Below, one piece after another: positions 3,218 through 26,732 of a DNA stretch of 60,509 nucleotides. The DNA is from an uncultured Nitrospinaceae bacterium (lineage in GTDB: Bacteria > UBA8248): positions 1 through 60,509 of the forward strand of contig CAZUHN010000237.1 in assembly GCA_964620535.1 (NCBI GenBank), read 5' to 3'. Positions within the stretch are counted from its first letter, which is position 1; every line of letters starts with the position of its first letter. Below the pieces are notes generated by a model that saw nothing but the letters and a program-made list of their open reading frames with translations, made no database searches and had not been told where the DNA came from. The translations under genes and the position numbers were made by a program.

Positions 3218-4792
3218 GTGAATATTTCTATAATCACCTGGATGGTGTTTCTGCCTCTCGCGGGAGGGTTGCTCCTCGCCGTCGCGGGCGAGGAGGATGA
3301 GGCGGGCCGCCGGCGCGAGCGCGTCATCTCGCTCGCCGTCTCCCTCATCACCTTTGTTCTCTCCCTCGGCCTGTATTACGGCTTCCGGGCCGACTACGCG
3401 GGGATGCAGTTCGTCGAAAGATTCGACTGGATCCCCCGGTTTGGTATCGCCTACAAGGTGGGGATTGACGGAATCAGCCTCCCGCTCGTCCTGCTCACCA
3501 CCTTCCTCACCCCGGTTGCGATACTCTCTTCCTGGCAGGATATTCAAAAACACGTCCGCATTTATCACATGGCCATTCTCTTCCTCGAAACCGGCATGCT
3601 CGGGGTGTTCGTCGCTCTCGATTTCTTCCTTTTCTACGTTTTCTGGGAGGCGATGCTCATTCCGATGTACCTGATAATCGGGGTGTGGGGGGGGGCAAAA
3701 CGCATCTACGCCGCCGTGAAGTTTTTCCTCTACACCATGGCGGGAAGCGTGCTGATGCTGGTTGCCATTTTATGGCTGTATTTCGCGAACGGCGCGGCCA
3801 CCTTCGATATCCTGACGTATTTGGAAAGGCCGGTTCACGCCTCTTTGCAGGGCTGGCTCTTCGTCGCCTTCGCCCTTTCGTTTGCGATCAAGGTGCCAAT
3901 GTTTCCCTTCCACACCTGGCTGCCCGATGCGCATGTGGAGGCGCCGACGGCGGGAAGCGTCATCCTGGCCGGCGTGTTGCTAAAAATGGGTACGTACGGG
4001 TTCATGCGTCTGGCCATGCCGCTCTTCCCCGCCGCGGCCAGGGCTTTCGCCCCTCTTATCTTGATCCTAGCGGTCATCGGGATCATTTACGGGGCGCTGG
4101 TGGCCATGATCCAGGAGGATGTCAAGAAACTTGTGGCGTATTCCTCGGTGAGCCATCTGGGGTTTGTGATGCTGGGTCTTTTTTCCTTTAATCTGCTCGG
4201 CGCGGAAGGGGGGTTGATCCAAATGGTGAATCACGGAATCAGCACCGGTGCCCTCTTCCTCATCGTCGGGATGATCTACAGTAGGCGGCATACGCGCCTC
4301 ATCGAGGATTTCGGCGGACTCGCCCGGGTGATGCCCGCATTTTCGGTCTTTTTCGTGTTGGCCGCCCTCAGCAGCATCGGGTTGCCGGGCTTAAACGGTT
4401 TTGTGGGAGAGTTCACGATTCTCCTGGGCGCCTTCCAGAGCCGGCCCGTATTCGCCGTCCTGGCCACGGCGGGGGTGGTGCTGGCCGCGGTGTATATGCT
4501 CTGGATGCTTCAGCGGGTTCTCTTCGGCGGGGAGGCCTCGCGGGTGAACCGAATGCTGCCCGATCTGGGCGTGCGCGAGTGGGTGGTGATATTTCCGATG
4601 GTGGCGCTCATGTTCTGGATTGGCCTTTATCCGAAGCCTATTTTTCGCGTAATGGAACCGTCCGTCCAAGCCTGGCTTCGGCAGGTGAACCGGCGGGTCC
4701 TCCGCGTGGAGATGCCCGTGGCAGCCCCGGCGGCGAACATCGCAAATGTTGCCATTTCCGCGCGGATCGGTTCTGAAGGAAAGCGGCCGTGA
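3218..4792 (+). CDS. nuoM: NADH-quinone oxidoreductase subunit M (copy 1)
   Basis: 524 aa with the NuoM signature [43 protein letters not shown] start preceded by GAGGAGG. Confidence 0.95.
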
Positions 4793-6267
4793 CGCTCACC
4801 TTTCCCCTCATCGATTGGCCGGTGATCTTTCCCGTCATACTGGTGGTGATTGGCGGGGTTCTCGTCTTGGCGTGGGACACTTTCTTCCGCGGAGATGCGC
4901 GCTCCCTTGTCATAACCCTATCGCTCGGAACGCTCGGAGCCGCGATGGGAGTGACCATTTTCGCCCGCCCAGTGAACGAAACCGCTCTTTCCCTCGGGGG
5001 TTTGTATCTCTTCGATGGATTCACCCAGTTTGTCTTCTTTTTGATTCTGCTTTCGAGCTTTATCTCGATCTTGGTTTCTGCGTCCCAGCCCGAACTGGAG
5101 AAGGCCCCCCCCGGCGAGTACTACTGCCTCATTCTTTTCGCCACCTGCGGGATGATGCTGATGGCGGCGACCCGGAACATGCTCATGGTGTTCATCGGCC
5201 TCGAACTCTTCTCGATATCGCTCTACGTTCTTGCCGGGTATCTGCGCTCGCGGCTACAAGGAAACGAAGCCGCGTTGAAGTACTTTCTGTTGGGGTCATT
5301 CGCGTCCGGGTTTCTCCTTTACGGAATGGCGCTCATCTACGGGACGACGGGCACTGTCGATATCATGAAGGCGGCCGAGCACCTTGCCCAGAATCCCGCC
5401 TCCCGCAGCTTGGCGTTTTTGCTGGGGGTGGGATTCGTTGTGATGGGCCTGGGTTTCAAAGTGGCGGCGGTCCCTTTTTATATGTGGACGCCGGACGTGT
5501 ACGAAGGATCCCCGACCTCGGTGACGGCGTTCATGTCGGTGGGGCCGAAGGCGGCGGCGTTCGCGGCGTTTTTCCGCCTCGTCATCTCGACCGCCCCCCA
5601 CATCGGCGCCGAGATCGGCGCGGTGCTTTGGACGATGGCGGCCCTCACCATGACGGTGGCGAACGTAGTTGCCATATGGCAGTCGAACATCAAGCGGATG
5701 TTGGCGTACTCAAGCATTTCCCACGCGGGGTATCTGCTCGTCGCGCTCGTGGCCGCGAAGGACGGGGGCGACCTGGCGACGGGCGGATTTCTGTACTACA
5801 TGCTCGTCTATTTGTTCATGAATCTGGGGGCTTTTTGCGTTGTGGTGGCGACGGGCGCGGGGGGGAGGGAGCGGGTGGAAATCGAAGAATACGCCGGGAT
5901 GGGCTATACGTGCCCCGGCCTCGCTTTCGCGATGGCGATTTTCATGGTCTCCCTCGCGGGGCTTCCTCCCACGGGCGGGTTTGTCGCCAAATTTTACGTT
6001 TTCAGCGCCGCGGTAAAGGCGGGCCACGTTGCCCTCGTCGTCATCGCCGTTCTCAATAGTGTGATTGCGGTTTACTTCTATCTCCGCATTGTGGTCGTGA
6101 TGTACATGCGGGAGGCCTCTGCGGGGGCGGCCGCTGTAGTGCTGGGCCGGACCCGGCCTTACGCCATCGCCACACTCGTAATCGGGGTGGTGGCCACCCT
6201 GAATTTGGGAATATTTCCGGCTAAATTTATGGAGATCGCCCAGCGCTCGGCGGACCTTTTGAACTAG
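4789..6267 (+). CDS. nuoN: NADH-quinone oxidoreductase subunit N (copy 1)
   Basis: 492 aa with the NuoN signature [37 protein letters not shown] start overlaps the nuoM stop by 4 nt. Confidence 0.94.
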
Positions 6268-6333
6268 GGCGGGGGGGATGGTTTTTTCCCGGGGGCCCGT
6301 GCTATAAAGTTCCCGGCAGTTGGGGACTTTCCT

Positions 6334-6358
6334 GAGCCGCCTCGTTGCGGGGCGGCTC
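6334..6358 (+). terminator. Candidate stem-loop terminator between the two nuo operons
   Basis: GAGCCGCC (6334-6341) pairs with GGCGGCTC (6351-6358) across a 9-nt loop, followed by only TT. The weak U-tract makes this tentative. Confidence 0.3.
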
Positions 6359-6453: not shown

Positions 6454-6846
6454 ATGGAATTCGTTTCCGGATTTTTCCGTGAATATCAAGCAATAAATAG
6501 CTACGTTCCCCTTTTTATTTTCACCTTGGTCGCTATCGGATTTGCGGGCGTAACTCTCCTTGTCGCCCTTTTGATTCGCCCGAACCGGCCGGATCCAGAG
6601 AAGAATTCCCCCTATGAATGCGGCATTCCGCCTCTTACCGAGGCGCACGAGCGTTTTTCCATTCGGTTCTATCTTTTGGGAATCCTTTTTCTTCTCTTCG
6701 ATGTAGAGGCTGCATTTCTTTTCCCTTGGGCCGTGCGGTACGACGCGCTTGGGCTTTTCGGCTTCATCGAAATGATGCTGTTCATTTTTATCCTTCTGAT
6801 TGGTTTCTTTTACGCATGGCGGAAGGGGGCGCTGGAATGGGCATAG
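6454..6846 (+). CDS. nuoA: NADH-quinone oxidoreductase subunit A (copy 2 operon)
   Basis: 130 aa with NSPYECG and [15 protein letters not shown] motifs typical of NuoA/ND3. Confidence 0.94.
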
Positions 6847-7313
6847 TTGAAGGAAAATTCAGCGATAATTTCTTAACCACCAAGCTGGATAGCCTAGTGG
6901 CGTGGGCACGAAAGAGCGCCCTTTGGCCGATGACTTTCGGCCTCGCCTGCTGCGCCATCGAAATGATGGCCTCGGGCGCCTCGCGTTACGATTTTGATCG
7001 ATTTGGCGTTATTTTTCGGGCCACCCCTCGGCAATCCGACGTAATGATCGTGGCCGGAACGGTGACCCATAAAATGGGGTCAGTTTTGCGGAAAGTGTAC
7101 GACCAGATGCCCGAGCCAAGATGGGTCATATCCATGGGCAACTGTTCGACATGCGGAGGTCCTTATCCGAACTATGCTGTCGTGCAAGGCGTCGATGAAC
7201 TGGTGCCGGTGGATGTCTATGTGTCTGGTTGCCCGCCGCGTCCCGAATCTTTGATGTGGGGTGTGATGCAGCTTCAGAAGAAAATTGAACAGGAAAAATT
7301 CATCCGCGCATAA
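6837..7313 (+). CDS. nuoB: NADH-quinone oxidoreductase subunit B (copy 2 operon)
   Basis: Within ORF 6618..7313, the ATG at 6837 gives MGIVEGKF...[15 protein letters not shown]...MGNCSTCGG...SGCPPRPE, which supplies the N2 cluster cysteines. It overlaps the nuoA stop by 10 nt. Confidence 0.93.
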
Positions 7314-7335
7314 AGGTGCGGCAAGAAGAGTAACG

Positions 7336-7920
7336 ATGGAAGAAACCGCCAAAACGAAGGGGAATACAGAAGGCGACTCTGATACAGAGGCGCCCGAGGC
7401 CCCAAAAGAATTTCCCGGAAAAGATCTGGGAGATCTGATAGACAGGGAGTTTCCGGGAGCCATACTCGAAGAGTCGGCCTTCAAAGATCTTGAAGACGAG
7501 GTAACCTTCATTCTTAAAATTGACGCTTGGCGGAAAGTCGCTGTCTTCATGAGGGATCATCCATCATCCAAATTTGTTCTTCTAACTGACCTCACCGCAG
7601 CTCATTATCCCGAAGAGGAAGAACCATTTCAGATCATCTGCCAAATGGTCAGCCTTGAGCACAATCGCAGCCTTCGATTGAAGGTGAAAATAAAAGAGGG
7701 AGTTTCGGTTCCCTCGCTCTCGGGAATTTGGTCCAGCGCAAATTGGATGGAGCGCGAAATTTGGGATTTGTACGGCATTCCTTTTCAGGATCACCCGGAC
7801 CTCCGCCGGATCTTGTTGCCGAGGGACTGGGGGGGGCACCCGCTTCGCAAGGATTATCCACTCGAGGGCCGCAGAGAGCGTGTGTACGAAAAGCCCAAGC
7901 GCAAGGAAATCGGGGAATAG
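7336..7920 (+). CDS. nuoC: NADH-quinone oxidoreductase subunit C (copy 2 operon)
   Basis: NuoC/30-kDa motifs WSSANWMEREIWDLYGIPFQDHPDLRRILLP. I chose the ATG at 7336, just after the nuoB stop; the ORF track starts at 7285. It has an acidic N-terminal extension. Confidence 0.9.
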   Translation: MEETAKTKGNTEGDSDTEAPEAPKEFPGKDLGDLIDREFPGAILEESAFKDLEDEVTFILKIDAWRKVAVFMRDHPSSKFVLLTDLTAAHYPEEEEPFQIICQMVSLEHNRSLRLKVKIKEGVSVPSLSGIWSSANWMEREIWDLYGIPFQDHPDLRRILLPRDWGGHPLRKDYPLEGRRERVYEKPKRKEIGE

Positions 7921-7993
7921 AGGCTGGCTCCATTCCGAGAAGGAGCAAGGCCATGGGAATGAAGAAGCCGTTACAGTTGGAGAATTAAGCGAT

Positions 7994-9136
7994 ATGTTCG
8001 AAGTAGAGTCCCCTCCCCGGGTGGAAAAATCGAGCATCCTCCCCGGGACCGAGGATCTGGTTGTCAATATGGGGCCGCAGCACCCGAGCACACACGGGGT
8101 GCTACGGGTGATCCTCAAGCTGGACGGCGAGACGGTGACCGATTGTGACGTCGACATCGGGTACCTTCACCGCGGGACTGAAAAGATCGGCGAGAACATC
8201 ACCTATACGATGTTCATTCCCTACACGGATCGGCTTGACTACATCGCTGCGCCATTGAACAACTTGGCATGGGTAACCGCGGTCGAAAAGTTTTTTGACT
8301 GGGAGATCCCGCTGCGCGCGGAATTTGTGCGATCCATGGTGGGGGAGTTCTCACGAATTGCGAGCCACCTTCTATGGCTTGCGACCCACGCCCTGGACAT
8401 CGGTGCGATGACGGTTTTCCTTTGGTGCTTCCGCGAGCGCGAAATGGTTCTCGACATATTTGAAACCGCATTCGGCGCACGCCTTACAGTAAATGCATTC
8501 CGGCTCGGAGGCCTGGAGCAGGACGTACCGAAAAAATTTCTCGATCTTGCGCGGGAGTTCATCGAAATTTTTCCCGACCGCATCAAGGATTATGAGACGC
8601 TTCTAACGGATAACCGCATCTGGATGAAGCGGACCCGCGGTGTGGGCTACATTTCGGCCGAGGATGCCCTCGACCTTGGCTTAACCGGTCCTCCCTTGCG
8701 GGCCAGCGGCGTGAATTGGGATCTTCGCCGCGTTCGGCCCTACGCGGCTTACCCATATTTGGACTTCGTTGTCCCCGTCGGGCAAAATGGGGACGTTTAC
8801 GATCGGTATTTGGTCCGAATCGAAGAGATGCGGCAAAGCACGCGGATCATTGAGCAATGCCTGAATATGCTTCCGAGCGGTCCTGTGAGCTGCAAAACTC
8901 CACGCACAATTAAGCCTCCACCAGGTGAGATTTATCACAGCATCGAAAATCCCAAAGGAGAGTTCGGTTTCTATATCGTGAGTGACGGCACCGAATCGCC
9001 CTACCGGGTACGCATCCGCCCTCCGTCGTTTCTTAACCTTGCCGCTCTCAAAAAGATGGCCGTTGGCGGACTGGTGGCCGACGTGGTTGCCGTCATCGGT
9101 AGCCTTGACATTGTCCTGGGGGAGTGCGACCGCTAA
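7994..9136 (+). CDS. nuoD: NADH-quinone oxidoreductase subunit D (copy 2 operon)
   Basis: NuoD/49-kDa signatures NMGPQHPSTHGVLR and the C-terminal SLDIVLGECDR. I chose the ATG at 7994 (MFEVESPP), downstream of the nuoC stop. Confidence 0.93.
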   Translation: MFEVESPPRVEKSSILPGTEDLVVNMGPQHPSTHGVLRVILKLDGETVTDCDVDIGYLHRGTEKIGENITYTMFIPYTDRLDYIAAPLNNLAWVTAVEKFFDWEIPLRAEFVRSMVGEFSRIASHLLWLATHALDIGAMTVFLWCFREREMVLDIFETAFGARLTVNAFRLGGLEQDVPKKFLDLAREFIEIFPDRIKDYETLLTDNRIWMKRTRGVGYISAEDALDLGLTGPPLRASGVNWDLRRVRPYAAYPYLDFVVPVGQNGDVYDRYLVRIEEMRQSTRIIEQCLNMLPSGPVSCKTPRTIKPPPGEIYHSIENPKGEFGFYIVSDGTESPYRVRIRPPSFLNLAALKKMAVGGLVADVVAVIGSLDIVLGECDR

Positions 9137-9181
9137 TTATGGACGCAATCGCCTGTCGGTTATTTGTAATTTGGTGCATTC

Positions 9182-10240
9182 GTGAGGTGGTTGCTTGACC
9201 CGGCCGGATTGTTCGACAGGAAAAACCTTTTGGCGGAATGGCACAAAGGTAGAGAGGGGTTCGGTCCTTTGGACATAATATTTGAAATCGTCATCGCCAC
9301 AATAAAGATCGCTGTCGTCCTCGGCGTAGTATCTCTCGTTGTGGCGTACCTTACTTATTTGGAACGGAAAGTCATCGCGCACATACAGATGCGTATGGGG
9401 CCTATGCGGGTAGGCTGGCACGGCCTTCTCCAGCCGATCGCTGATGGACTCAAACTATTCCTAAAAGAAGATATTATTCCGGACAAGGCGGATCGAATCG
9501 TCTTTATTCTTGCGCCCATTATGGTTCTCGTTCCTGCCTTTGTGGTCTATTCGGTTCTTCCCTTTAGCGAAACTTTTTATATCACTCAGGTAAACATCGG
9601 ATTGTTACTTATCATTTCGGTGAGTTCGCTCGGTGTTTTCGGGATCGTAATGGCCGGTTGGGCTTCCAACAGCAAGTACAGTCTTTTGGGCGCCATGCGG
9701 AGCGCGGCGCAAATGCTGAGCTACGAAATTTTCCTCGGATTTTCACTAATCGGACCCCTGATGATCGCTGGCACCCTGAACATGCAGGAGATCGTCAAGG
9801 CCCAAAGCGATGTTTGGTTCATCGTGTATCAACCGCTTGCATTCATTGTTTTTTTTGTAGCCTCTCTTGCGGAGACGAACCGCGTACCATTCGATTTGCC
9901 CGAGGCGGAAACGGAATTAGTCGCTGGATTTCACACCGAATATAGCGGAATGAAATTCGCTTTCTTCTTTTTGGCTGAGTATGCCAACATCATGGTGGTT
10001 GCAACGGTGGGCGTAGCTCTTTTTTTTGGCGGCTGGCAGGGCATCGCGGGAATACCGCTACCCGGATTCGTTTGGTATGTTCTCAAACTGTTCGCGTTGA
10101 TATTTTTGTTTATATGGTTGCGCGCTACCCTTCCGCGCTATCGGTATGACCAGCTCATGGCAATGGGCTGGAAGTTCATGTTTCCCCTTGTTATGGCGAA
10201 CATTTTCCTGACCGGTTTGGTGAAATACCTCTTTCTTTAA
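9182..10240 (+). CDS. nuoH: NADH-quinone oxidoreductase subunit H (copy 2 operon)
   Basis: 352 aa with [34 protein letters not shown] and [27 protein letters not shown]. It follows nuoD after a 45-nt gap, so no nuoEFG lies between them. Confidence 0.94.
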
Positions 10241-10261
10241 CTTTAAGAGGAGACGAACATC

Positions 10262-10771
10262 TTGGAGTTGCCCTTCTTTTACTTATTCTCGACAGGAATT
10301 GTGATCGCTTCGCTATTGATGGTGACGCGCGCCAACGTCATACACGCGGGTCTATTGTTGGTTCTCACATTCTTGTTCCTAGCGGGATTGTACGTTCTTA
10401 TGGGGGCGGAGTTTCTCGCTGCGCTACAGATACTTATTTACGCCGGTGGAATTATGGTTCTGTACCTTTTTTCTGTCATGCTTATGAATATCGATGTGGC
10501 GAGGCGCCTTCGGAAATGGCATCGGCAGAGCTTCGCAGCTCTTGCGGTGACAGTCGTTCTTGCCATAGAGGTTTGGATTGTTCTTGGAGATGGAAATTTT
10601 CCCGCACAGAAAAGCCCTTCCGGGACACTCGGCGCCACTCCCGGAAATGTCGAGGCTCTCGGAAACGTTCTTTACACAAAGTTCTTGTTCCCTTTTGAAG
10701 TCGTTTCGATTTTATTGCTCGCGGCGATGATCGGCGCGATCGTCCTGGCGAAGCGGACGATAGAGCGCTAG
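10262..10771 (+). CDS. nuoJ: NADH-quinone oxidoreductase subunit J (copy 2)
   Basis: 169 aa, paralogous to 406..945 ([21 protein letters not shown]). It starts 21 nt after the nuoH stop, so no nuoI lies between them. TTG start preceded by AAGAGGAG. Confidence 0.9.
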
Positions 10772-10790
10772 AAATCGGAGGAAAGAGTCG

Positions 10791-11093
10791 ATGGTGCCGC
10801 TTTCCCATTATTTGGCACTGGGGGCAATCCTATTTCTGATCGGTGCGGGAGGGGTGTTGATGCGCCGAAACGCGATCATCATCCTGATGAGCATAGAACT
10901 GATTTTGAATGCGGTTAACGTTACTTTCGTGGGCTTCTCGCGCCAACTCGGGGACCTGACGGGTCAGGTATTCGCCATATTCGTCATCGCGGTAGCGGCG
11001 GCTGAGGCGGCCGTAGGGCTGGCCATCCTGGTAACGCTCAACCGGGATCGGTCCACGGTGAACGTGGACGAAGTGAACCTTCTCAAGTGGTAG
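10791..11093 (+). CDS. nuoK: NADH-quinone oxidoreductase subunit K (copy 2)
   Basis: 100 aa with [20 protein letters not shown] and [14 protein letters not shown]. Confidence 0.93.
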
Positions 11094-11100
11094 AAAAGGC

Positions 11101-13173
11101 ATGATTTCGTACATCTGGCTCGTCCCGCTTTTGCCGGCGATCGGCGTTCTCATCAACGGATTTTTGGGGGCGAAGTACACGCGTGAAAAGGCGGGCCACA
11201 TTGCCTGCCTGATGACGGGCCTTTCATTTCTCGTTGCGCTTTTAATCAGTTTCGAGATGATTTTTGGCGAAGGGGGCAGCCATACGGTTCATCTCTGGAG
11301 CTGGATCGCAGCGGGTGATTTGAATGTATCGGTAAGCCTGCTCGTTGACCCCCTGAGCACAATTATGCTCCTCGTGGTGACGGGGGTGGGCTTCGTCATC
11401 CACGTCTACTCGCTGGGCTATATGCACGGAGATCCCGGCTACCCCCGGTTTTTCACCTACCTGAACCTATTCATGCTCTCCATGCTCATCCTCATTTTGG
11501 CGGACAACTTTCTCCTCATGTTCGTCGGTTGGGAAGGGGTTGGCCTTTGCAGCTATTTGTTGATCGGATTCTGGTACGAGAAACAATCGGCCTCTGACGC
11601 AGGCAAGAAGGCCTTCATCGTGAATCGGGTGGGGGACGCGGGTTTCCTCCTTGGCATGTTCCTTATCTGGGTTCTGACGGGAAGCCTGACCTACAGTGAA
11701 GTATTTAAAGAGGCGCCCCAACTTTCGGCGGCGGGAGCGAGCGCCATTGGGCTTTTTCTCTTCATCGGCGCAATGGGGAAAAGCGCGCAAATTCCGCTTT
11801 ATGTCTGGCTCCCGGACGCGATGGAGGGCCCCACGCCGGTGAGCGCTCTGATCCATGCGGCCACCATGGTCACCGCTGGGGTCTACATGGTGGCGCGCTC
11901 AAGCCATATCTACGTCATGGGGGGCGCCATCCCCCTTGATTTCCTGGGGCTCGAAATCCCATCGGTGCTCGAAGTCATCGCCGTGGTGGGTGCCCTCACG
12001 GCTTTGATGGCCGCTACGATCGGTCTCGTCCAAAATGATATCAAGCGCGTCTTGGCCTATAGCACGGTGAGCCAGCTCGGCTTCATGTTCATGGCCCTCG
12101 GCGTGGGCGCCTTCACGGCCGGCATCTTCCACCTCATGACCCATGCCTTTTTCAAGGGACTTCTCTTTCTCGGAAGTGGAAGCGTCATTCACGCCCTGCA
12201 TCACGCCCCCGTGGACCAACAGCAAGACATGCGCTATATGGGTGGGCTTCGCACGAAGATGCCCGTTACCTACTGGACCTTCGTGATAGGTGCGGTCGCG
12301 ATTGCGGGGGTCCCGCCGCTGGCTGGATTCTGGAGCAAGGATGAGATTCTCGCCAATGCGTTTTTCACCGGCCATTTTCCCATCTGGGCCATCGGAACCG
12401 TCGCCGCCTTCATGACCGCTTTTTATATGTTCCGGCTCATTTTCATGACTTTCCACGGGGAGATGCGCGTGGACCATCACGCCCGTGAGTATATTCATGA
12501 ATCACCCGCATCCATGACAGTGCCCCTCGTGATATTAGCTATCCTCAGCGTCATTGGAGGAATCATTCCGGGATTTCCGCCTGAGGGGGGGTGGATCCAT
12601 GGGTTTCTCGAACCCTCTCTCGCTACCCTGGGAGGTGGACACGCCGCGGCCGACCCGCGGATCATTTTCGTTTCCACTGCGGCGGAAGGGACGAATGGCG
12701 GAGGTCATGGAGGACCGGCTGCGCCTTTGCTTGTCGTGCTCGCCATCGCAGTTGCTCTCGGGGGCATCGCACTGGCCTGGCATATGTATATTCGAAGGCC
12801 CGCCACTCCAGATTTCCTCGCGGCCCAATTTCCCGGGTTGTACCGGATCTTCCTAAACAAATACTACGTAGATGAGTTCTATCAGACCTACATCGTCGAG
12901 CCCATCTACCGTCTCATGAATTTTCTTTGGGACTTTGACGCCAAGGTAGTCGATGGCGCGGTCAACGGGAGCAGTCTTATTACGGTGGTAACCTCTCGTT
13001 TTTCGGGAATTTTCGATCTTCAGACGGTAGACGGCGCCGTGAACGGAACCGGGTCGGTCGTCCGATTTTTCTCGCAGGCGCTGAAATTCATACAGTCCGG
13101 CATGGTACAAAACTATGTTTTCTTTATGTTGATCGGTTTATTTTTGATGCTCAGCGGCTACCTTTTCCGCTAG
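11101..13173 (+). CDS. nuoL: NADH-quinone oxidoreductase subunit L (copy 2), with extended C-terminal region
   Basis: 690 aa with core GKSAQIPLYVWLPDAMEGPTPVSALIHAATMVTAGVY. It is 54 aa longer than copy 1, owing to a Gly/His-rich loop insertion and a 26-residue tandem duplication in the lateral-helix segment. Confidence 0.94.
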   Translation: MISYIWLVPLLPAIGVLINGFLGAKYTREKAGHIACLMTGLSFLVALLISFEMIFGEGGSHTVHLWSWIAAGDLNVSVSLLVDPLSTIMLLVVTGVGFVIHVYSLGYMHGDPGYPRFFTYLNLFMLSMLILILADNFLLMFVGWEGVGLCSYLLIGFWYEKQSASDAGKKAFIVNRVGDAGFLLGMFLIWVLTGSLTYSEVFKEAPQLSAAGASAIGLFLFIGAMGKSAQIPLYVWLPDAMEGPTPVSALIHAATMVTAGVYMVARSSHIYVMGGAIPLDFLGLEIPSVLEVIAVVGALTALMAATIGLVQNDIKRVLAYSTVSQLGFMFMALGVGAFTAGIFHLMTHAFFKGLLFLGSGSVIHALHHAPVDQQQDMRYMGGLRTKMPVTYWTFVIGAVAIAGVPPLAGFWSKDEILANAFFTGHFPIWAIGTVAAFMTAFYMFRLIFMTFHGEMRVDHHAREYIHESPASMTVPLVILAILSVIGGIIPGFPPEGGWIHGFLEPSLATLGGGHAAADPRIIFVSTAAEGTNGGGHGGPAAPLLVVLAIAVALGGIALAWHMYIRRPATPDFLAAQFPGLYRIFLNKYYVDEFYQTYIVEPIYRLMNFLWDFDAKVVDGAVNGSSLITVVTSRFSGIFDLQTVDGAVNGTGSVVRFFSQALKFIQSGMVQNYVFFMLIGLFLMLSGYLFR

Positions 13174-13195
13174 CGGACGGTATTCGGAGGTTTCT

Positions 13196-14785
13196 ATGGG
13201 CAACATCATGGAATTTCCCCTCCTCACGTTGATCACTTTTCTCCCTCTTTTGGGAGGAGTGATCTTGATGCTCTTTTTTAAGAAAGAGCACACAAAGGCC
13301 ATCAAGTCCTTTGCGACAATCGTCGTCTTGGTGGACTTTTTCCTTTCCATTCCTCTTTGGACAAATTTTGATACATCGGAGGCGGGATTCCAATTCTTAG
13401 AGAAAGCGATCTGGATTCCGGCCATCGGTGTGAATTATCTGATTGCAGTGGACGGAATCAGCGTTCTCCTTGTTCTTCTGACGACGCTGACCATGGTCGT
13501 CTCGGTGGTCTGTTCTTATTCCGCGATCAAAGAGCGGGAGAAAGAATATTACGTTTGCATGTTGTTCCTCGCAACGGGAATGATCGGTACATTCGTCTCC
13601 CTTGACCTATTTCTTTTCTACGTATTCTTCGAAATTACCCTTGTTCCGATGTATTTCTTGATTGGAATCTGGGGAGGAACCCGGAAGCTCTACGCCGCAA
13701 TAAAGTTCTTTCTCTACACGCTGTTCGGAAGCGTGCTCATGTTGTTGGGAATCTTGGCTCTGTATTTCTTCAATTTAAAATCGGGGACGGGTCAATTCAC
13801 CTTTAGTCTCCTTGAACTTTATGATGTCGGGCCGAAAATTCCGCTGGAAGTTCAAAATTGGATTTTCTTGGCTTTCTTCGTCGGGTTTGCGATCAAAGTG
13901 CCAATGTTTCCCTTCCACACTTGGCTGCCTGACGCCCACGTAGAGGCCCCCACGGCGGGCAGCGTAATTTTGGCGGGCGTTCTTTTGAAAATGGGAACTT
14001 ACGGTTTTGTCCGCTTCATGCTTCCATTGCTTCCCCAGGCGAGCCAATTTTTTGTCCCCTTCATGGTTCTGCTGGCGATCATCGGAATCATTTATGGCGC
14101 GTTGGTCGCCATGGCCCAGACAGACGTCAAGAAGCTTGTGGCTTACTCGTCGGTTAGCCATCTGGGATTTGTCATGCTGGGCGTTTTTGCTTTGAACCAG
14201 CAGGGCATCCTTGGCGGCCAACTTCAGATGGTCAATCATGGAATAAGCACCGGGGCGCTCTTCCTTCTGGTTGGAATCATTTACGAACGGCGGCACACCC
14301 GCGAGATCACCGATTTCGGCGGACTTTCGAAACAAGTTCCCATTTATTCGACCATATTTGCCATAACCATGCTGAGCAGCATCGGCCTGCCGGGCCTCAA
14401 CGGATTTGTGGGAGAGTTTTTGATTCTGATTGGTGTTTTCAAGGTAAGCAGCCTCTACGCAGCCTTCGCTGTGATTGGAATCATTCTGGGCGCCGCCTAC
14501 ATGCTCTGGCTGTTTCAAAGGATGTTCTTCGGGGTGTTGGAAAATCCGGAGAACCAGAGGCTGACAGACTGTAACAAGCGCGAGGTAGTCTACATGCTGC
14601 CTCTTATATTGTTGATGTTCTGGATCGGTCTATATCCGAAGCCCTTCCTGGATCGCATGGAGAAAAGTGTGAGCAAGGTGGTTCGGATGGTGAATGTGGC
14701 CCAGGCGCCGCAAGGAAAGCGGGTGAGTGCCATTCCGAATCCGGTGGCGTTCCTTAAGGCAAAAGAGGCGCGCCTGGCGCGCTAG
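13196..14785 (+). CDS. nuoM: NADH-quinone oxidoreductase subunit M (copy 2)
   Basis: 529 aa with [40 protein letters not shown], matching copy 1 in this motif. Confidence 0.95.
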   Translation: MGNIMEFPLLTLITFLPLLGGVILMLFFKKEHTKAIKSFATIVVLVDFFLSIPLWTNFDTSEAGFQFLEKAIWIPAIGVNYLIAVDGISVLLVLLTTLTMVVSVVCSYSAIKEREKEYYVCMLFLATGMIGTFVSLDLFLFYVFFEITLVPMYFLIGIWGGTRKLYAAIKFFLYTLFGSVLMLLGILALYFFNLKSGTGQFTFSLLELYDVGPKIPLEVQNWIFLAFFVGFAIKVPMFPFHTWLPDAHVEAPTAGSVILAGVLLKMGTYGFVRFMLPLLPQASQFFVPFMVLLAIIGIIYGALVAMAQTDVKKLVAYSSVSHLGFVMLGVFALNQQGILGGQLQMVNHGISTGALFLLVGIIYERRHTREITDFGGLSKQVPIYSTIFAITMLSSIGLPGLNGFVGEFLILIGVFKVSSLYAAFAVIGIILGAAYMLWLFQRMFFGVLENPENQRLTDCNKREVVYMLPLILLMFWIGLYPKPFLDRMEKSVSKVVRMVNVAQAPQGKRVSAIPNPVAFLKAKEARLAR

Positions 14786-14794
14786 GAATATGCG

Positions 14795-16312
14795 TTGGAG
14801 CCAGGTTTGATGGACATTGTTTTTCCGGACATTTCTTTTTGGCTGGCGGCACCCGAGATCGGGCTTGCTGTCCTAATCGGTATCGTCTTGATTGCGGACC
14901 TTTTTACCCCCCTCGAGAACAAGGCAGCGATGGGCGTCCTGAGCCTGGTCGGCGTCATCCTCCTCGTTTTCGTGAGTTTCTGGCAGTGGGGCGAGGGCAT
15001 GCGGACCACCTTCAGCGGCTTCTATGTGGTGGACAACTTCAGCGTTTTCGTGAAGGTCGTCATCCTTGCCGCCACGGCGCTTTCGATCTCTCTTTCTCTG
15101 CAATACGTGAAAGTCGAGAGAATCAACTACGGCGAGTTCTACGGATTGATCCTTTTCTCGGTGTTCGGGATGCTCGTGATGGCTTCGGGAAATGATCTCA
15201 TCTCGATCTATCTTGGCATTGAGACCATGAGTTTAAGCATCTATGTCCTCGTCGGGTTCATTCGCCATGATCCTCTGAGCCGGGAGGCATCATTAAAATA
15301 TTTCCTGATGGGCGCATTTGCCTCTGGAATCGTTTTGTACGGAATGGCGCTGACGTACGGTATGACAGGCACCACATCACTGGCCGGGATTTCCGAGTCG
15401 CTCTCGGGCGCGGGAGGAGGGGAAATCTCTTCGAATCCTGTCATGATTTTCGCTCTCATTCTTCTTGTGGCGGGTTTCGCGTTTAAGCTTGCTCTTGCTC
15501 CGTTCCATATGTGGCTTCCTGATGCGTATACAGGTGCCCCTACGACAATTACGGCCTTTATGTCGGTTGCCGTGAAGGCCGCCGCGTCCGCGGCATTGAT
15601 TCGTCTTTTTTTCATCGGACTCCAGGTACTGGCACCCAGGTGGAACTTCCTACTATGGCTGCTCGCTGCCTCCACCATGATCTGGGGAAATGTCGCCGCC
15701 ATTGCCCAAACCAGTCTCAAACGGATGCTTGCTTATTCGAGCATTGCCCATGTGGGTTACTTATTGTTGGGTGTGGTAGCGGCCATGACCATCAATGACG
15801 ACGGGAAGGTGGTTTTTAGCAATGAAGGGGTTAGCGCCGTCCTTTTCTATCTGTTGGTATACATGTTCACCAATCTGGGCGCATTCGGGATGCTCATTCT
15901 AATTTGCCGGGAGGGCTATCGGGGGGACAACATCGAGGACTGGCGAGGAGTCGGGCAGGCCCACCCTATCGTCGGACTTTCTTTCGTTGTGTTTTTGCTT
16001 TCATTGGCGGGAATACCTCCCACGGCGGGATTTGTGGGAAAACTAATCCTTTTTGCAGCCGCCATTCAAAACCAATACTATTGGCTTGCCGTGATTGGGA
16101 TACTTTCGAGCGCCGTCTCGATTTACTACTACGGCCACATCATGCGGGTGATGTACATGAACCCGAGGACTACGAGCCAGCCCCCAATTGAATTTTCGAA
16201 ATCCCCCTCTCTTCTGCTCACCCTATTACTATTGGTCATCGCCACCATTGCGCTCGGAATTTTTCCGGGCAGCTTTATCGAAGCGGCTCGAGGATCTGTT
16301 CTGGGCATCTGA
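14795..16312 (+). CDS. nuoN: NADH-quinone oxidoreductase subunit N (copy 2)
   Basis: 505 aa with FKLALAPFHMWLPDAYTGAPTTITAFMSVAVKAA. The start is either the TTG at 14795 or the ATG at 14810. Confidence 0.93.
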   Translation: MEPGLMDIVFPDISFWLAAPEIGLAVLIGIVLIADLFTPLENKAAMGVLSLVGVILLVFVSFWQWGEGMRTTFSGFYVVDNFSVFVKVVILAATALSISLSLQYVKVERINYGEFYGLILFSVFGMLVMASGNDLISIYLGIETMSLSIYVLVGFIRHDPLSREASLKYFLMGAFASGIVLYGMALTYGMTGTTSLAGISESLSGAGGGEISSNPVMIFALILLVAGFAFKLALAPFHMWLPDAYTGAPTTITAFMSVAVKAAASAALIRLFFIGLQVLAPRWNFLLWLLAASTMIWGNVAAIAQTSLKRMLAYSSIAHVGYLLLGVVAAMTINDDGKVVFSNEGVSAVLFYLLVYMFTNLGAFGMLILICREGYRGDNIEDWRGVGQAHPIVGLSFVVFLLSLAGIPPTAGFVGKLILFAAAIQNQYYWLAVIGILSSAVSIYYYGHIMRVMYMNPRTTSQPPIEFSKSPSLLLTLLLLVIATIALGIFPGSFIEAARGSVLGI

Positions 16313-17060: not shown

Positions 17061-17642
17061 TCAAGAAAGAAGCCTTTCGATCAGAGCAATTACCTCCCCT
17101 AGGCGCTCCACACGGTAATCACATGAGGGTCCTGGATCGGGTGCAAGGTGAACAGAAATCATTCTCGCCTCTGTGGCGGCCATCATGTCATATCGACCGT
17201 CACCGATAAAAATGCACATCTCTGGTGGCACATCGATTGCCTTTGCACCTGCCAAGACATGCCGGACATCAGGTTTCCAGTGGCCGATGTCCCTCGTGAT
17301 AATTTTATCGATGGATAGCCTGGTCCGTTGAAGCATAAAAGATATGTGTCGCATTGCGTTATTTGTCACCACACCGAAAGGAACATTTTTTGTTGCCAAG
17401 AATTCAAGCAGCTCCACCGCTCCTTCGTTAGCTTCGGCGCGCTCCGCCGCCGCTCGTTCGTGGCGCTCCAGAACCATGGCAATTTGATGCGCGCGATACG
17501 AGGGAGCGGTTGTCAGGAAATCAAGAATCGACACCGAGTCCGTATCGAAATTCATTTCCCGTTTCATGGCCGGCCAGTCGATGACCGGCTTAACAAGAGT
17601 TCCATCAAAATCCAAGAGAACACCATGAAAGATTTTTTCCAA
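17061..17642 (-). CDS. HAD-superfamily hydrolase (phosphatase-like)
   Basis: All four HAD motifs are present: LLDFDGTLV (DxDxT), VVTNN, KPD and GDGRYD. Confidence 0.85.
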   Translation of the reverse strand: MEKIFHGVLLDFDGTLVKPVIDWPAMKREMNFDTDSVSILDFLTTAPSYRAHQIAMVLERHERAAAERAEANEGAVELLEFLATKNVPFGVVTNNAMRHISFMLQRTRLSIDKIITRDIGHWKPDVRHVLAGAKAIDVPPEMCIFIGDGRYDMMAATEARMISVHLAPDPGPSCDYRVERLGEVIALIERLLS

Positions 17643-17654
17643 TCCATTGTCCTT

Positions 17655-18662
17655 TCAGAGCACCTTGCTGATTTCATCAGCATCGAACCGTGGAAGCGGA
17701 AATCGTTTCCCACTTTGGAGAATGGTTACGCCTTCGGCGGGAGGCAGGAGAGTTCCGATCCGGATTCCCAGGCCACCCGCCTCTTCGAGGATCCCCCGAA
17801 GGAAGTTTTCGTTTTCCGGCGGAACGGCGAGTAGAAGCGCCCCCGAGGTGATGACCCCCAAAGGATCAATGCCGAGGGCCGAACAAATGGCCGCTCCCTC
17901 CTGCGAAATTGGAACGGCGTCTTTCTCTACGAGGGCGCCCAGCCGAGCCGCTTCGGCCAACTCGTGCACCCCAGTGGCCAGACCGCCTTCCGTCGGATCG
18001 TGCATTGCGTTGACGAAGCCGGTTTCCGCCGCTGCGAGAGCAAGGCGAACTACGCTGATTCCCGGATCCGTTAAATAGTTTTCCGCTCGATGGATTAAAT
18101 CGGAACCAAGAGTCGGGATGAGTTCTTCCCGCTTCGCCGCTGCCAGGACGGCTGTTCCTTCTACCGGAATTGCACGGGTAAGTAAGATAACGTCACCTGG
18201 TTGGGCACTGTCTCCGCGGACGAGGCGTTCCTTATTTACCTCCCCAAGCATTTGACCGCAGAGAACGGGCCGGGTGAGACCTTGGGTGATCTCTGTGTGT
18301 CCGCCACATAGGGTGATACCAAGATCCTCGCAGGCGCTTCGAACGTCGGCCCAAATAGTTTCCACCATCTTCTCGTCAGCAAGATTTTCAGGAAGAAGAA
18401 GAGTCATCAGAAACCAAAAGGGTTGTGTGCCCATACATGCGATGTCGTTTGCGTTTACGTGCACTGCATACCACCCGATTCGACCTTCGACGAAAGTGAC
18501 GGGGTCGGATTTCGCGACCAGGTAACGATCTCCCAAATCGATGACGGCTGCGTCCTCTCCAACGCGCGGGCCGATGATCAGGCGTGGGTGTCCTTCAAGC
18601 TTCATTAACATTTTTCCGAGCATTTCTGCGGGAAGTTTTCCGACGGGAAGAAAGGTCTTCAC
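17655..18662 (-). CDS. AIR synthase-related protein (PurM/HypE/SelD superfamily)
   Basis: 335 aa with GEDAAVIDLGDRYLVAKSDP, NANDIACMG, GGHTE and DPTEGGLA, the typical PurM-fold ATP-binding motifs. There is no N-terminal Cys/Sec-Gly-x-Lys motif. It sits 12 nt upstream of the HAD gene. Confidence 0.8.
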   Translation of the reverse strand: MKTFLPVGKLPAEMLGKMLMKLEGHPRLIIGPRVGEDAAVIDLGDRYLVAKSDPVTFVEGRIGWYAVHVNANDIACMGTQPFWFLMTLLLPENLADEKMVETIWADVRSACEDLGITLCGGHTEITQGLTRPVLCGQMLGEVNKERLVRGDSAQPGDVILLTRAIPVEGTAVLAAAKREELIPTLGSDLIHRAENYLTDPGISVVRLALAAAETGFVNAMHDPTEGGLATGVHELAEAARLGALVEKDAVPISQEGAAICSALGIDPLGVITSGALLLAVPPENENFLRGILEEAGGLGIRIGTLLPPAEGVTILQSGKRFPLPRFDADEISKVL

Positions 18663-18816
18663 TGTGTCTCCACTTCACGTTTGGGAGCGTACCAAGTCTA
18701 ACAATACAGCTCCTCCTGGACAAAATGATGCGGATGGACCGGCCTAGGCTGTTTATTCCTTGCGCCAATCAATTTGAATTTGAAACGGGTTTTTCTCAAT
18801 TCATTTTCGCAGGGCC

Positions 18817-18845
18817 TTGACGCGTCTAATAGGCCATTTTAGAAT
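18817..18845 (+). promoter_or_regulatory. Sigma-70-like promoter upstream of tRNA-Phe
   Basis: TTGACG (18817-18822), a 17-nt spacer, then TAGAAT (18840-18845), about 85 nt upstream of the tRNA. Confidence 0.45.
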
Positions 18846-18932
18846 CGATTCCTTTTCTGGGGATGGATTTTGTTAAGTATGTGAAAGGTTTTGGCAGCGG
18901 TTCGTGAGAATATCAATTCACTTTCCCATCAT

Positions 18933-19008
<76 letters not shown>

Positions 19009-19445
19009 GTCGAATCGCCCACCCCTCGTCGTCTCCGGATAATGCAGTATTTCTTGTGCATCGCCCGCCCGGTCATCTATATGACAGAATGGGGAATGCG
19101 AAATCGGTGGATGGCTGCGGGGATGTGCCGCCGCTGTCTGCCGCCTGGGGGTTCGCGTACCGGGCGGCCGATTTTCAATCACCCAGAAGTCGCTTTGGGC
19201 ACTCGAAATTCTGGCCGCGTTGGGGTTTTGCTGCGATTAGAGCGTTATCCCGGTGAAGAACTGGCACGATGGAATCTGACGCGCCCTCCCAATATTGGTC
19301 CATTTCGTGAGATGATTTCTGGTCGCTTGGATTTGCCTCCCCCTTTCGGGTCCGGCCTCTATGCGACCCTTCCGGCTGCACCCCTCAAGGAAGAGGTCAA
19401 AGGGCTCTGGCCTCGCGGGAACGCCATGCGAGCCCTTATGCTGGA

Positions 19446-20720
19446 TTGATAGAATTTTTCACCTGGTTGTTTCCCCTTTGCGAGTCGAGATCCTTGGCAC
19501 GTCTATTTGAGAACGATTCCCTCGAGTTGATCGGCCGCTGGGGCGTGGAAGTCCCGGCATTTGAGGTGGCCGAGAGCCCGGAGGAGGTCGCCGCCGCCCT
19601 GGAGCGCCTGGGGGGAAGGGTCGTCCTCAAGGCGCTCGTTCCGGTGGGAGGGCGGGGCAAGGCGGGCGCGGTGAAGCTCGTCTCCTCGCCGGAAGAAGCA
19701 CGCGAAGAGGGCGGCCGCATCCTCGGCCTCACGGTTCACCGCTTTCCCGTCAAACGCCTCCTCGTGATGGAGGCGCTGGAGATCCGGCGCGAATTTTTCC
19801 TCTCCATCACCTTCGACCCCAAGCACAAGAGTCCCCTCGTCCTCTTCAGCGCCGAGGGAGGGATCGACATCGAAGAGCTCGTGGCGGACCACCCCGAAAA
19901 GATCTTCGAGTTTCCGGTGGACATCACCCGGGGGCTCGAGGCCCGCCGCGGGTCGGACCTCGCCGGGCGCGCCGGGCTAGCGGAGGATGCTTCCCTTCTC
20001 TGCGGTCGGGCGATGCAGGGTCTCTACGAGCTGTTCCGGGCGTGCGACTGCCGGATGGTGGAGGTGAACCCGCTGGCCGAACTCGCGGGCGGGCGCCTCG
20101 TGGCGGGCTCGGGGGTGGTTAATCTGGACGAGCAGGCCCTGCACCGCCATCCGGACCTGGAAAAACTCGTGAGAGAGGAGGAGGGGAACGGCTGGCGGCC
20201 CCTGACGCCCCTCGAGCGCGAGATGCGCGAGATCGACGCCATCGACCCCCACAGCGGGGCCATCCGCTTCGGCGAAATGGAGGGCGACATCGCCTTCATG
20301 GTGACGGGGGGCGGGTACGGCCTCGCGAGCCTCGGCCAGTTCCTCGAGGAAGGGGGCCGGCCGGCCTGCACCTTCGATATCACCCCGGGGCGCTACGAGG
20401 AGAAGATGTACCGGGCCGTCAAGGCGGTTCTCTCCCAGCCGGGGCTCCGGGGGCTGGTTCTGGCCGGGAATGTGAGCAATTTCACCCGGGTGGATATCAA
20501 GGTGGCGGGGGTGGTCCGCGGCCTCAAGGAAGCGGGCCTCGATTTCAACAAAATTCCCGTCGTCATCCGCTACGCCGGACCCGGGATCGAGGAGGCGCGC
20601 CGGATGATCGCCGAGGTGCCCGGGGTGGAGTGGCACGAGGCGGACTTCTCCCTCGAAGCGGTCTGCAGGCGCATCGTGGACCTCGCCTATCGGCGCGGAG
20701 AAGGAAAGGAGCGTGCGTGA
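19446..20720 (+). CDS. Succinyl-CoA synthetase beta-subunit-like protein (ATP-grasp, ADP-forming acyl-CoA synthetase family)
   Basis: VVLKALVPVGGRGKAGAVKLV matches the SucC ATP-grasp motif. The remainder is divergent (FMVTGGGYGLASL instead of CMVNGAGLAMGT). The in-frame TTG at 19494 (MARLFENDSLELIGRWGV) is an alternative start. Confidence 0.8.
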   Translation: MIEFFTWLFPLCESRSLARLFENDSLELIGRWGVEVPAFEVAESPEEVAAALERLGGRVVLKALVPVGGRGKAGAVKLVSSPEEAREEGGRILGLTVHRFPVKRLLVMEALEIRREFFLSITFDPKHKSPLVLFSAEGGIDIEELVADHPEKIFEFPVDITRGLEARRGSDLAGRAGLAEDASLLCGRAMQGLYELFRACDCRMVEVNPLAELAGGRLVAGSGVVNLDEQALHRHPDLEKLVREEEGNGWRPLTPLEREMREIDAIDPHSGAIRFGEMEGDIAFMVTGGGYGLASLGQFLEEGGRPACTFDITPGRYEEKMYRAVKAVLSQPGLRGLVLAGNVSNFTRVDIKVAGVVRGLKEAGLDFNKIPVVIRYAGPGIEEARRMIAEVPGVEWHEADFSLEAVCRRIVDLAYRRGEGKERA

Positions 20721-21622
20721 GCATCATACTCGACGGAGCGACCCGCGTTCTCGTCCAGGGGATCACCGGAGCAGAGGCGCGCCGCCTCCTTCCCACCATG
20801 CGCGATTACGGGACGAACGTCGTGGCCGGGGTTTCGCCCGGAAAGGGGGGGCAGAAGGTGGACGGCGTTCCCGTCTTCAGCACAGCGGAGGCCGCCCTTC
20901 GCGAGGTGGAGGTGGACATTTCCGTCCTATTCATCCCGGCGCGCTTCGTGCGCGATGCCGCTCTCGAGGCGATCGGGGCCGGGGTTCCCGCCGTCCATGT
21001 TCTCGCCGAGGGAGTTCCCCACCACGACGCCTGCGAGATCGTCACCCGGGGAAAATCGGCCGGCACCTTCATCATCGGGCCCAACAGCCAGGGGATGGTC
21101 TCTCCGGGCAAGGCCAAGCTGGGGGGGACCGGTGGCGAGGTTCCCGGCCTCATGTTCCGTCCCGGGCCGGTCGGTGTGGTGAGCCGGAGCGGGGGGATGG
21201 GGGCGGAGATCTGCCTCTTCCTCACCCTGGCGGGAATCGGCCAGAGTACCTACGTCGCCATTGGGGGGGACCTCATCATCGGCGCCGCGTTCGTGGAGAT
21301 GCTGGAACTCTTCGAGCGGGACCCCGAAACCGAGTGCGTGGTCATATTCGGCGAGCCGGGCACAGGCCGCGAGGAGGAGGCGGCGGAGTTCATCGCCGCG
21401 GGCGGATTCACGAAGCCGGTGGTGGCCATGATCCCGGGCGAGTTCCTGGAGAACTCTCCGAGCCCCACAAGCCTGGGCCACACTGGGGCTCTCATCGAGC
21501 GCGGGGTGGGCGCCCCCTCGGGGAAAAAGAAACTCCTGCGCGAGGCGGGAGCGGAGATAGCCGAGCACTTTTCCGATATCGTTCCTCTGGTGGCAAAAGC
21601 GCTCGAACGGCGGATCATCTGA
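20717..21622 (+). CDS. Succinyl-CoA synthetase alpha-subunit-like protein (CoA-binding, phosphohistidine subunit)
   Basis: GTG at 20717 overlaps the upstream stop (GTGA) and follows AAGGAAAGGAG. Contains VLVQGITGAEAR, VAGVSPGKGGQKVDGVPVF, SRSGGMGAE and GHTGALI (catalytic His). Confidence 0.85.
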   Translation: MSIILDGATRVLVQGITGAEARRLLPTMRDYGTNVVAGVSPGKGGQKVDGVPVFSTAEAALREVEVDISVLFIPARFVRDAALEAIGAGVPAVHVLAEGVPHHDACEIVTRGKSAGTFIIGPNSQGMVSPGKAKLGGTGGEVPGLMFRPGPVGVVSRSGGMGAEICLFLTLAGIGQSTYVAIGGDLIIGAAFVEMLELFERDPETECVVIFGEPGTGREEEAAEFIAAGGFTKPVVAMIPGEFLENSPSPTSLGHTGALIERGVGAPSGKKKLLREAGAEIAEHFSDIVPLVAKALERRII

Positions 21623-22092: not shown

Positions 22093-22127
22093 CCTTTTGC
22101 CCGAGAGGTTCGGGACGAGGTTTTTTT
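22093..22127 (+). terminator. Terminator/attenuator-like hairpin plus T7 run in the symporter leader
   Basis: An imperfect stem spans 22093-22120 (core CCCGA/TCGGG, outer CCTT/GAGG), followed by TTTTTTT at 22121-22127 and a second T6 run. It lies about 135 nt upstream of the micro-ORF. Confidence 0.3.
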
Positions 22128-23802: not shown

Positions 23803-23857
23803 GGCAAGAGAAAACGGAAATTGAGCGTGTAGCCGATTGGTTACACCGAAATTGACC

Positions 23858-26709: not shown

Positions 26710-26732
26710 CAGTTTTGTAAGATTTCTAATTT

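Follow-up and report, generated by a model that had tools for sequence, protein, structure and literature searches.

To our knowledge, every studied member of the complex I superfamily carries a homolog of NuoI between the electron-input site and the iron-sulfur cluster N2. In cyanobacteria, NDH-1L and NDH-1MS combine one shared core with a choice of paralogous modules whose genes lie elsewhere, and the clusters for the "2M" complex I of Nitrospira carry nuoI. The 2M enzyme (of the type described by Chadwick et al. 2018) is found in chemolithoautotrophs with a reductive tricarboxylic acid (TCA) cycle, where its proposed role is to power reverse electron flow toward ferredoxin (PMC9040806, PMC12342949). 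The NUO-2 enzyme of Nitrospina, a related marine nitrite-oxidizer lineage, has been proposed to serve quinol-to-ferredoxin reverse electron transport (Lücker et al. 2013; Kop et al. 2024). Here, we examine a 60,509-nt stretch from an uncultured Nitrospinaceae bacterium (contig CAZUHN010000237.1), referred to in full as the window, in which positions 6454-16312 of the forward strand encode a second complex I operon (operon 2) of ten consecutive genes, nuoA2-B2-C2-D2-H2-J2-K2-L2-M2-N2. We find that a deep lineage keeps this second complex I body without nuoI under strong selection, and we consider the NuoI of the adjacent upstream operon to be the leading, though tentative, candidate for the absent subunit.

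The ten genes of operon 2 are assigned consistently by Pfam and NCBIfam, and the NCBIfam models for NuoB, D, H, L, M and N exceed their own cut-offs on its products. No Fer4 domain is detected by Pfam in any of the ten products, nor is NuoE, NuoF or NuoG encoded in the operon, in agreement with an initial annotation of the locus that listed the same ten genes without NuoEFG or NuoI and reported no CxxCxxCxxxCP motif in their products. When the 60,509 nt are scanned in six frames for Cx2Cx2Cx3C, two motifs are recovered, both in a truncated NuoI at 1-381, along with one other match at 9838-9870, which is single, lies out of frame within nuoH2 and is attributed to chance. Because NuoB2 keeps the ligands of N2 while NuoI and NuoEFG are missing, operon 2 alone encodes no path to this cluster, which bears out the earlier claim that it cannot wire electrons to N2 by itself.

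All ten genes lie on the forward strand. The operon begins with nuoA2 (6454-6846; Pfam Oxidored_q4) and nuoB2 (6837-7313, 158 aa), the ATG start of which at 6837 overlaps the end of nuoA2, and continues with nuoC2 (7336-7920, 194 aa; Pfam Complex1_30kDa), whose translation has an acidic N-terminal extension without a cysteine motif, and nuoD2 (7994-9136, 380 aa, ATG start at 7994). The next gene, nuoH2 (9269-10240, 323 aa; Pfam NADHdh, with an identical protein, P0001), starts at a conserved TTG at 9269, and its length of 323 aa is also that given by gene callers. The initial annotation had the end of nuoD right at 9136 but began nuoH at 9182, leaving a 45-nt gap; this extension from GTG 9182 was rejected because the 29 upstream codons are not conserved in relatives, and the gap between nuoD2 and nuoH2 is instead 132 nt and contains no gene. 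In the place that nuoI occupies in other complex I operons, between the end of nuoH2 at 10240 and the TTG start of nuoJ2 at 10262, we observe 21 nt (10241-10261, forward strand) that hold only a GAGGAG ribosome-binding site, just as originally described. The remainder of the operon consists of nuoJ2 (10262-10771), nuoK2 (10791-11093), nuoL2 (11101-13173, 690 aa), nuoM2 (13196-14785) and nuoN2 (14810-16312, ATG start at 14810), all assigned by Pfam and the last three also by NCBIfam.

Directly upstream lies the end of a second set of nuo genes (operon 1). The window opens on the 3′ part of nuoI1 (1-381, forward strand, 126 codons), which was identified by Pfam Fer4 families and the motif scan, carries two Cx2Cx2Cx3CP motifs for clusters N6a and N6b and is the sole ferredoxin-type gene in the window; its ortholog in the closest relative (L005; related loci are denoted by L numbers) is full-length at 159 aa. 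It is followed on the same strand by nuoJ1 (427-945), nuoK1 (973-1275), nuoL1 (1278-3188), nuoM1 (3218-4792) and nuoN1 (4789-6267), as assigned by Pfam and by gene calls in L001. The C-terminus of NuoG precedes nuoH1 in L005, and in relatives whose metagenome contigs reach further upstream, operon 1 is a canonical 14-gene nuoA-B-C-D-E-F-G-H-I-J-K-L-M-N operon, so that the upstream operon, which the initial annotation had recognized as holding nuoI, is a full nuoA-N set in these relatives. The locus is thus a 24-gene tandem (14 + 10), and within such tandem loci, every subunit is duplicated except E, F, G and I, which occur once.

To assess the conservation of this arrangement, relatives were collected by a genome scan with NuoD2, and gene order was mapped by tblastn. 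The same layout (...H1-I1-J1-K1-L1-M1-N1, a spacer of 110-200 nt, then A2-B2-C2-D2-H2-J2-K2-L2-M2-N2) is observed in ~35 genomes, with a gap of 19-35 nt between nuoH2 and nuoJ2 across ~35 relatives. The A-B-C-D-H-J-K-L-M-N order recurs at ~40 independent loci in genomes ranging from 35% to 69% GC. Closed chromosomes are found among the tandem carriers, with several at 3-4.5 Mb and L166/L167 at 5.2 Mb; the latter represent a more distant lineage with the same tandem, in which NuoH2 is 71% identical to that of the window. At a further locus, L165 (NuoH2 61% identical), the I-less operon stands alone. A gene lost from the assembly between 10240 and 10262, which the initial annotation had named as one way in which its reading could fail, is rejected because the junction recurs in ~40 loci including closed chromosomes, and the layout of operon 2 is therefore not an assembly error. 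The I-less arrangement is kept across a deep clade. Proteins of the window also have identical or near-identical matches in TARA and oxygen-minimum-zone assemblies. One of the relatives (L031) is the metagenome-assembled genome (MAG) ODZ_NOB7a, which its authors assign to GTDB phylum UBA8248, a group once included in Nitrospinota (PMC11373643), and the related loci carrying the tandem probably belong to this phylum.

All ten genes of operon 2 are under purifying selection, with dN/dS values of 0-0.36 against L005 (0.08 for nuoA2, 0.036 for nuoB2, 0.19 for nuoJ2, 0 for nuoK2, 0.17 for nuoM2 and 0.22 for nuoN2), and across the clade, the copy 2 proteins are at least as conserved as those of copy 1. 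The four cysteine ligands of N2 are present in NuoB2, which scores above the cut-offs of NF005012 and TIGR01957, and the N2 cysteine motifs, including GCPP, occur in the window and in 46/46 copy 2 NuoB sequences. Residues 13-158 of NuoB2 closely resemble mitochondrial PSST (229 bits, E 2e-67), the subunit that binds TYKY, the NuoI homolog. Likewise, the quinone-site motifs of NuoD2, GPQHPSTHG with its histidine and RLDY with its tyrosine, are kept in 46/46 copy 2 sequences, and NuoD2 scores 505 bits against TIGR01962 (cut-off 459). Overall, 98-99.5% of the near-invariant positions of NuoI-containing complexes are preserved in the I-less NuoB2, NuoD2 and NuoH2, and the membrane subunits A, H, J and K as well as the antiporter-like L, M and N are all present by Pfam and NCBIfam.

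These sequences also separate operon 2 from related enzyme families. The C-terminus of NuoD2 reads ...LGECDR rather than DPCxxC, both NiFe cysteine pairs are absent, and among its PDB matches, the 49-kDa subunits of complex I rank far above hydrogenase large subunits; PDB entries for subunits of Mbh and formate hydrogenlyase (FHL) match far less well than those for complex I. For the antiporter-like subunits, the top-scoring models are NuoL, M and N, and the operon also encodes conserved NuoB, C, D and H. Operon 2 fits the definition of neither a group 4 [NiFe] hydrogenase nor an Mrp antiporter.

Two further features of these sequences were considered. In the window clade, an additional cysteine lies in NuoB2 three residues past an N2 ligand (CxxC, in GNCSTCGG at 7149-7172). 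As an adaptation to the loss of NuoI, this residue (GNCxTCGG) was rejected, being absent in I-less L165 and L166, and its presence in some nuoI-containing operons means that it is not tied to that loss. The second feature is base composition. Operon 2 and the next ~18 kb (6001-34000) are ~52-54% GC, with operon 1 at 58-60% and the last 25 kb of the window (36001-60509) at 60-68%. Recent horizontal transfer, as might be read from the lower GC of operon 2 relative to operon 1, was rejected as a general explanation, since lower GC at third codon positions (GC3) is confined to the window/L005 lineage; in genomes from 35% to 69% GC, GC3 is equal between copies 1 and 2, which indicates that both are old residents.

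A distinctive feature of operon 2 is found in NuoL2, where alignments, both pairwise and multiple, reveal a 26-residue tandem duplication in the lateral helix HL (residues 612-637; 12934-13011, forward strand), reading FDAKVVDGAVNGSSLITVVTSRFSGI then FDLQTVDGAVNG... This insertion is present in every NuoL of the copy 2 family that we examined, namely those of the window clade, L165, L166, the sisters L168 and L169, NC10, Phycisphaerae (L055 and L072) and the clusters lacking B and I; neither copy 1 nor the ordinary 14-type operons have it. An insertion of equal length and position is known in the 2M complex I of Nitrospira and in Manganitrophus, where it is thought to create space for an additional, fourth antiporter-like subunit, although some clusters with just three pump genes have it as well (PMC9040806). 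In operon 2, nuoM is present only once, and no further Proton_antipo_M gene is found in the rest of the window. With the insertion present and a second nuoM missing, a fourth pump subunit may come from genes outside the operon, or the lengthened helix may serve a different purpose.

The origin of operon 2 can be read from L168, L169 and L170, its closest relatives with a nuoI of their own. These 11-subunit, NuoEFG-less clusters (NuoH 60-66% and NuoD 59-62% identical to operon 2) have a nuoI of 147-153 aa between nuoH and nuoJ, with no nuoB detected in that of L169. In L168, the operon with its 147-aa nuoI at this position even lies in the same tandem position, after nuoJ1-N1. Since the sisters keep nuoI, and L168 does so in the same tandem position, the I-less state is a loss, and operon 2 derives from an 11-subunit, EFG-less ancestor. 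No account of a nuoABCDHJKLMN arrangement turned up in the literature that could be searched, the nearest being a remark that the MAG of Nitrospinota class UBA9942, the source of L168 (JGI 3300024259), has "all genes twice except nuoEFG" (Kop et al. 2024). Two side observations concern these relatives. The upstream cluster of L168 (1479-7262) comprises only nuoJ1-K1-L1-M1-N1, preceded by a glutamate-cysteine ligase gene, and its copy 1 membrane-arm genes are thus detached from nuoA-I. In L170, a GltD-like gene (1120-2556; Fer4_20 plus pyridine-nucleotide-disulfide oxidoreductase) lies directly upstream of nuoA and may be an alternative electron-input module.

In a neighbor-joining tree of 2781 concatenated columns, the window clade, L165+L166 and a clade of nuoACDHJKLMN clusters each receive 100% support. 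The deeper nodes have 52-69% bootstrap, at which one or two losses in the window/L165-L166 group are indistinguishable; the clade lacking both B and I is clearly separate, and nuoI has therefore left the cluster at least twice. The gene nuoH lies directly beside nuoJ in 16/80 metagenome loci, at least six of which (nine by a laxer count) have the order A-C-D-H-J-K-L-M-N without nuoB and nuoI, and no ferredoxin-motif open reading frame (ORF) occurs within these loci. The clusters of this kind (L103, 7751-17119; L100, L105, L119, L136, L098, L120, L122 and L125) encode a NuoC with a Pro/Ala/Lys-rich N-terminal extension. Another layout is seen in L116 (3125-16996), a 14-type nuoABCD-EFG-HJKLMN operon in which nuoH is followed by nuoJ and nuoI is missing despite the presence of NuoE, F and G. 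A 186-aa NuoI (P0254), followed as a lead to a NUO-2-type cluster, turned out to belong to an ordinary 14-gene operon.

Operon 2 is predicted to have its own sigma-70 extended -10 promoter (ATGGTT, 16 nt, TGCTATAAA; 6278-6308, forward strand), on the evidence of motif conservation in the spacers between nuoN1 and nuoA2. The motif TTGGTT-N14/15-TGnTATA(A/G) is found in 37/39 distinct spacers (from the window, L005-L037, L040, L060 and L085-L089) versus 1.2% of shuffled spacers, and it lies 12-34 nt past the nuoN1 stop (12-23 nt in 36/37). The rest of the spacer is not alignable between lineages, yet the motif is conserved. With a conserved promoter of its own before operon 2, the two operons are predicted to be two transcription units. 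The leader of operon 2 is 70-150 nt across relatives and ~145 nt in the window, where folding predicts an 11-bp GC-rich hairpin (6334-6358, forward strand); the leader has no Rfam match and, as a whole, is no more stable than shuffles (z = 0.36).

Operon 2 encodes a quinone module (B2, C2 and D2) and a whole membrane arm (A2, H2 and J2-N2). With N2 in NuoB2 and a normal quinone site in NuoD2, electrons must still pass between N2 and a cytoplasmic partner. We propose that the product is a second, working complex I-type enzyme descended from an 11-subunit, NuoEFG-less complex with the extended NuoL lateral helix, that its own nuoI was deleted in this lineage, and that the two-cluster connecting subunit would be supplied in trans. 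The most economical source would be NuoI1, since the canonical operon that encodes it immediately precedes operon 2 in nearly all carrier genomes, and we give this reading a probability of roughly 45%. NuoI1 is the only ORF with two [4Fe-4S] motifs within ~10 kb in ~43 loci, the rest of the 60-kb window has no further NuoI-like gene, and the single-copy pattern of E, F, G and I fits such borrowing. We infer that NuoI is present in the assembled enzyme 2 and that it is NuoI1. Addition of NuoI1 alone would give a ferredoxin-type 11-subunit enzyme, while NuoI1 together with NuoEFG would give a second NADH-linked isoform, and with its own promoter before operon 2, the cell could vary the ratio of the two enzyme bodies.

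Several observations weigh against borrowing from operon 1. In L165, neither a nuo gene nor a ferredoxin-motif ORF is found in the flanks of the I-less operon that the locus shows (~7 kb upstream, ~4 kb downstream), and a search of the 2.13-Mb contig, albeit a weak one, found no NuoI1-type protein. The NuoI of the nearest relatives with this gene shares only ~36% identity with NuoI1. The sequences carry no trace of co-adaptation: no convergence toward copy 1 is seen in our comparison of the I-less NuoB2, NuoD2 and NuoH2, which are no closer to copy 1 than their I-containing sisters, and NuoI1 displays no extra constraint, its 81% identity being like that of NuoD1 and NuoH1. Finally, nuo genes are often unlinked in this group, as in the nuoACDHJKLMN clusters, L116 and Nitrospina NUO-2.

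This last point leads to the strongest alternative, in which a dedicated nuoI paralog or another two-cluster iron-sulfur adaptor, encoded elsewhere in the genome, serves operon 2. Such an adaptor may sit with an alternative electron-input module, and the tandem position would then reflect inherited synteny with no functional link. The order of genes for iron-sulfur subunits is fluid in this family: the nuoACDHJKLMN clusters lack both B and I with no ferredoxin-motif ORF nearby, L116 has the order ABCD-EFG-HJKLMN without nuoI, nuoI has moved before nuoA in Phycisphaerae, Nitrospina NUO-2 is split into nuoACHIJKLMN, nuoEDG, nuoB and nuoF (PMC3578206; PMC10839748 supplement), and the I-less operon of L165 stands alone. 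An unlinked nuoI is for this reason a serious rival, although we regard it as somewhat unlikely, as no such gene is seen within 10 kb in ~43 loci or in the 60-kb window, and deletion is simpler than moving a gene out of the middle of an operon. Searches of the protein database for an orphan nuoI2, with the NuoI of L038 (which groups with copy 1), NuoI1 of L166 and cluster members as queries, returned none on known chromosomes among the best 120 matches listed per search, a test that is nearly uninformative.

A second alternative is that the enzyme is NuoI-free and that a soluble carrier, such as a 2x[4Fe-4S] ferredoxin of the reductive TCA cycle or another redox protein, docks in the empty NuoI site on NuoB2/NuoD2/NuoH2 and passes electrons straight to or from N2, giving a quinol:ferredoxin enzyme driven by the proton motive force. 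This would account for the intact N2 and quinone site despite the absence of nuoI and for L165, which has no nuo neighbor, and it finds an echo in the reductive-TCA-type genes nearby (a citryl-CoA synthetase/ATP-citrate-lyase-like pair at 19446-21622) and in the extended-helix signature of NuoL2, which has been associated with additional pumping in support of reverse electron flow toward ferredoxin (PMC9040806; PMC12342949). The PSST-like NuoB2, unrelaxed at its conserved positions, is better suited to a permanent partner than to an exposed surface. Moreover, NuoI is also a structural subunit that holds NuoH to the peripheral arm, and we know of no member of the complex I and group 4 hydrogenase family that works without a NuoI homolog. 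We consequently judge a NuoI-free enzyme to be improbable. Its most explicit version, in which a soluble 2x[4Fe-4S] ferredoxin, on which the reductive TCA cycle depends as reductant, would plug transiently into the empty NuoI site such that a substrate stands in for a core subunit, is a speculative one that we would give little weight, and the same low weight applies to its corollary, that the NuoL helix would recruit a fourth pump encoded elsewhere and thereby cover the energy cost.

That operon 2 is not a redox enzyme at all, but a duplicate in decay, an Mrp-like antiporter that retains only a vestige of the quinone module, or an artefact of assembly, could be suspected from the missing obligatory electron-transfer subunit, but this is largely refuted and highly improbable given its recurrence in ~40 independent assemblies including closed chromosomes, the strong purifying selection on all ten genes with copy 2 at least as conserved as copy 1, and the invariance of the N2 ligands and quinone-site residues in products that exceed the NCBIfam cut-offs.

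The surroundings of operon 2 give some indication of the host. The region at 17061-31463 contains genes for a HAD hydrolase and AIR-synthase-like proteins on the minus strand, tRNA-Phe (18933-19008), the citryl-CoA synthetase/ATP-citrate-lyase-like pair mentioned above, a sodium:solute symporter, chlorite dismutase (24478-25344) and selB and selA (28052-31463). These neighbors fit a nitrite-oxidizer-like autotroph with a reductive TCA cycle and selenocysteine, and we infer that the host is a UBA8248-type or Nitrospinota-related chemolithoautotroph. Candidates for this lifestyle in the marine and subsurface environment are poorly known and would have to obtain low-potential reductant from high-potential donors, a task for which enzyme 2 with its 2M-type NuoL is an obvious candidate. 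At a practical level, I-less and nuoACDHJKLMN loci will be misread in genome-based reconstructions of metabolism in which complex I is scored by counting its genes.

When compared to described systems, operon 2 is most similar to the 11-subunit, NuoEFG-less enzymes of L168, L169 and L170, with which it shares the same subunit families in the same order and, for L168 and L169, the 26-residue HL insertion in NuoL. Of the 11-subunit set A, B, C, D, H and I-N, operon 2 has ten, the difference being the 147-153-aa nuoI that these relatives keep between nuoH and nuoJ. The 2M complex I of Nitrospira resembles operon 2 in lacking NuoEFG, in having separate NuoC and NuoD and in the 26-residue NuoL insertion, but its clusters contain a second nuoM, whereas operon 2 has one nuoM and no nuoI. 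In the nuoI-ABCDHJKLMN operons of Phycisphaerae (L055, L056, L063, L072 and L081), nuoH adjoins nuoJ as in operon 2; these operons, unlike operon 2, keep nuoI (254 aa) at their front. Such an enlarged nuoI of ~250 aa ahead of nuoA is seen in L055 (7518-8282), L056, L063, L067, L072 and L081.

NUO-2 of Nitrospina gracilis is, like operon 2, a second complex I set with some subunit genes outside the main cluster. It differs in which genes these are, as NUO-2 (nuoACHIJKLMN plus nuoEDG and single nuoB and nuoF genes) retains nuoI in the cluster and has B and D outside it, and it further differs in having its own unusual E, F and G and in not being in tandem with NUO-1. The general precedent for complex I subunits supplied in trans remains cyanobacterial NDH-1. 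There, only the distal NdhD/NdhF (and Cup) are swapped, and NdhI belongs to the shared core operon set. For operon 2, either electrons reach N2 by a route not yet described, or one NuoI, perhaps with the whole NADH module, would serve two enzyme bodies. In the latter case, the exchange around the shared NuoI (and EFG, if these take part) would extend to the entire quinone module and membrane arm, a larger swap than that of NdhD/NdhF in cyanobacteria.

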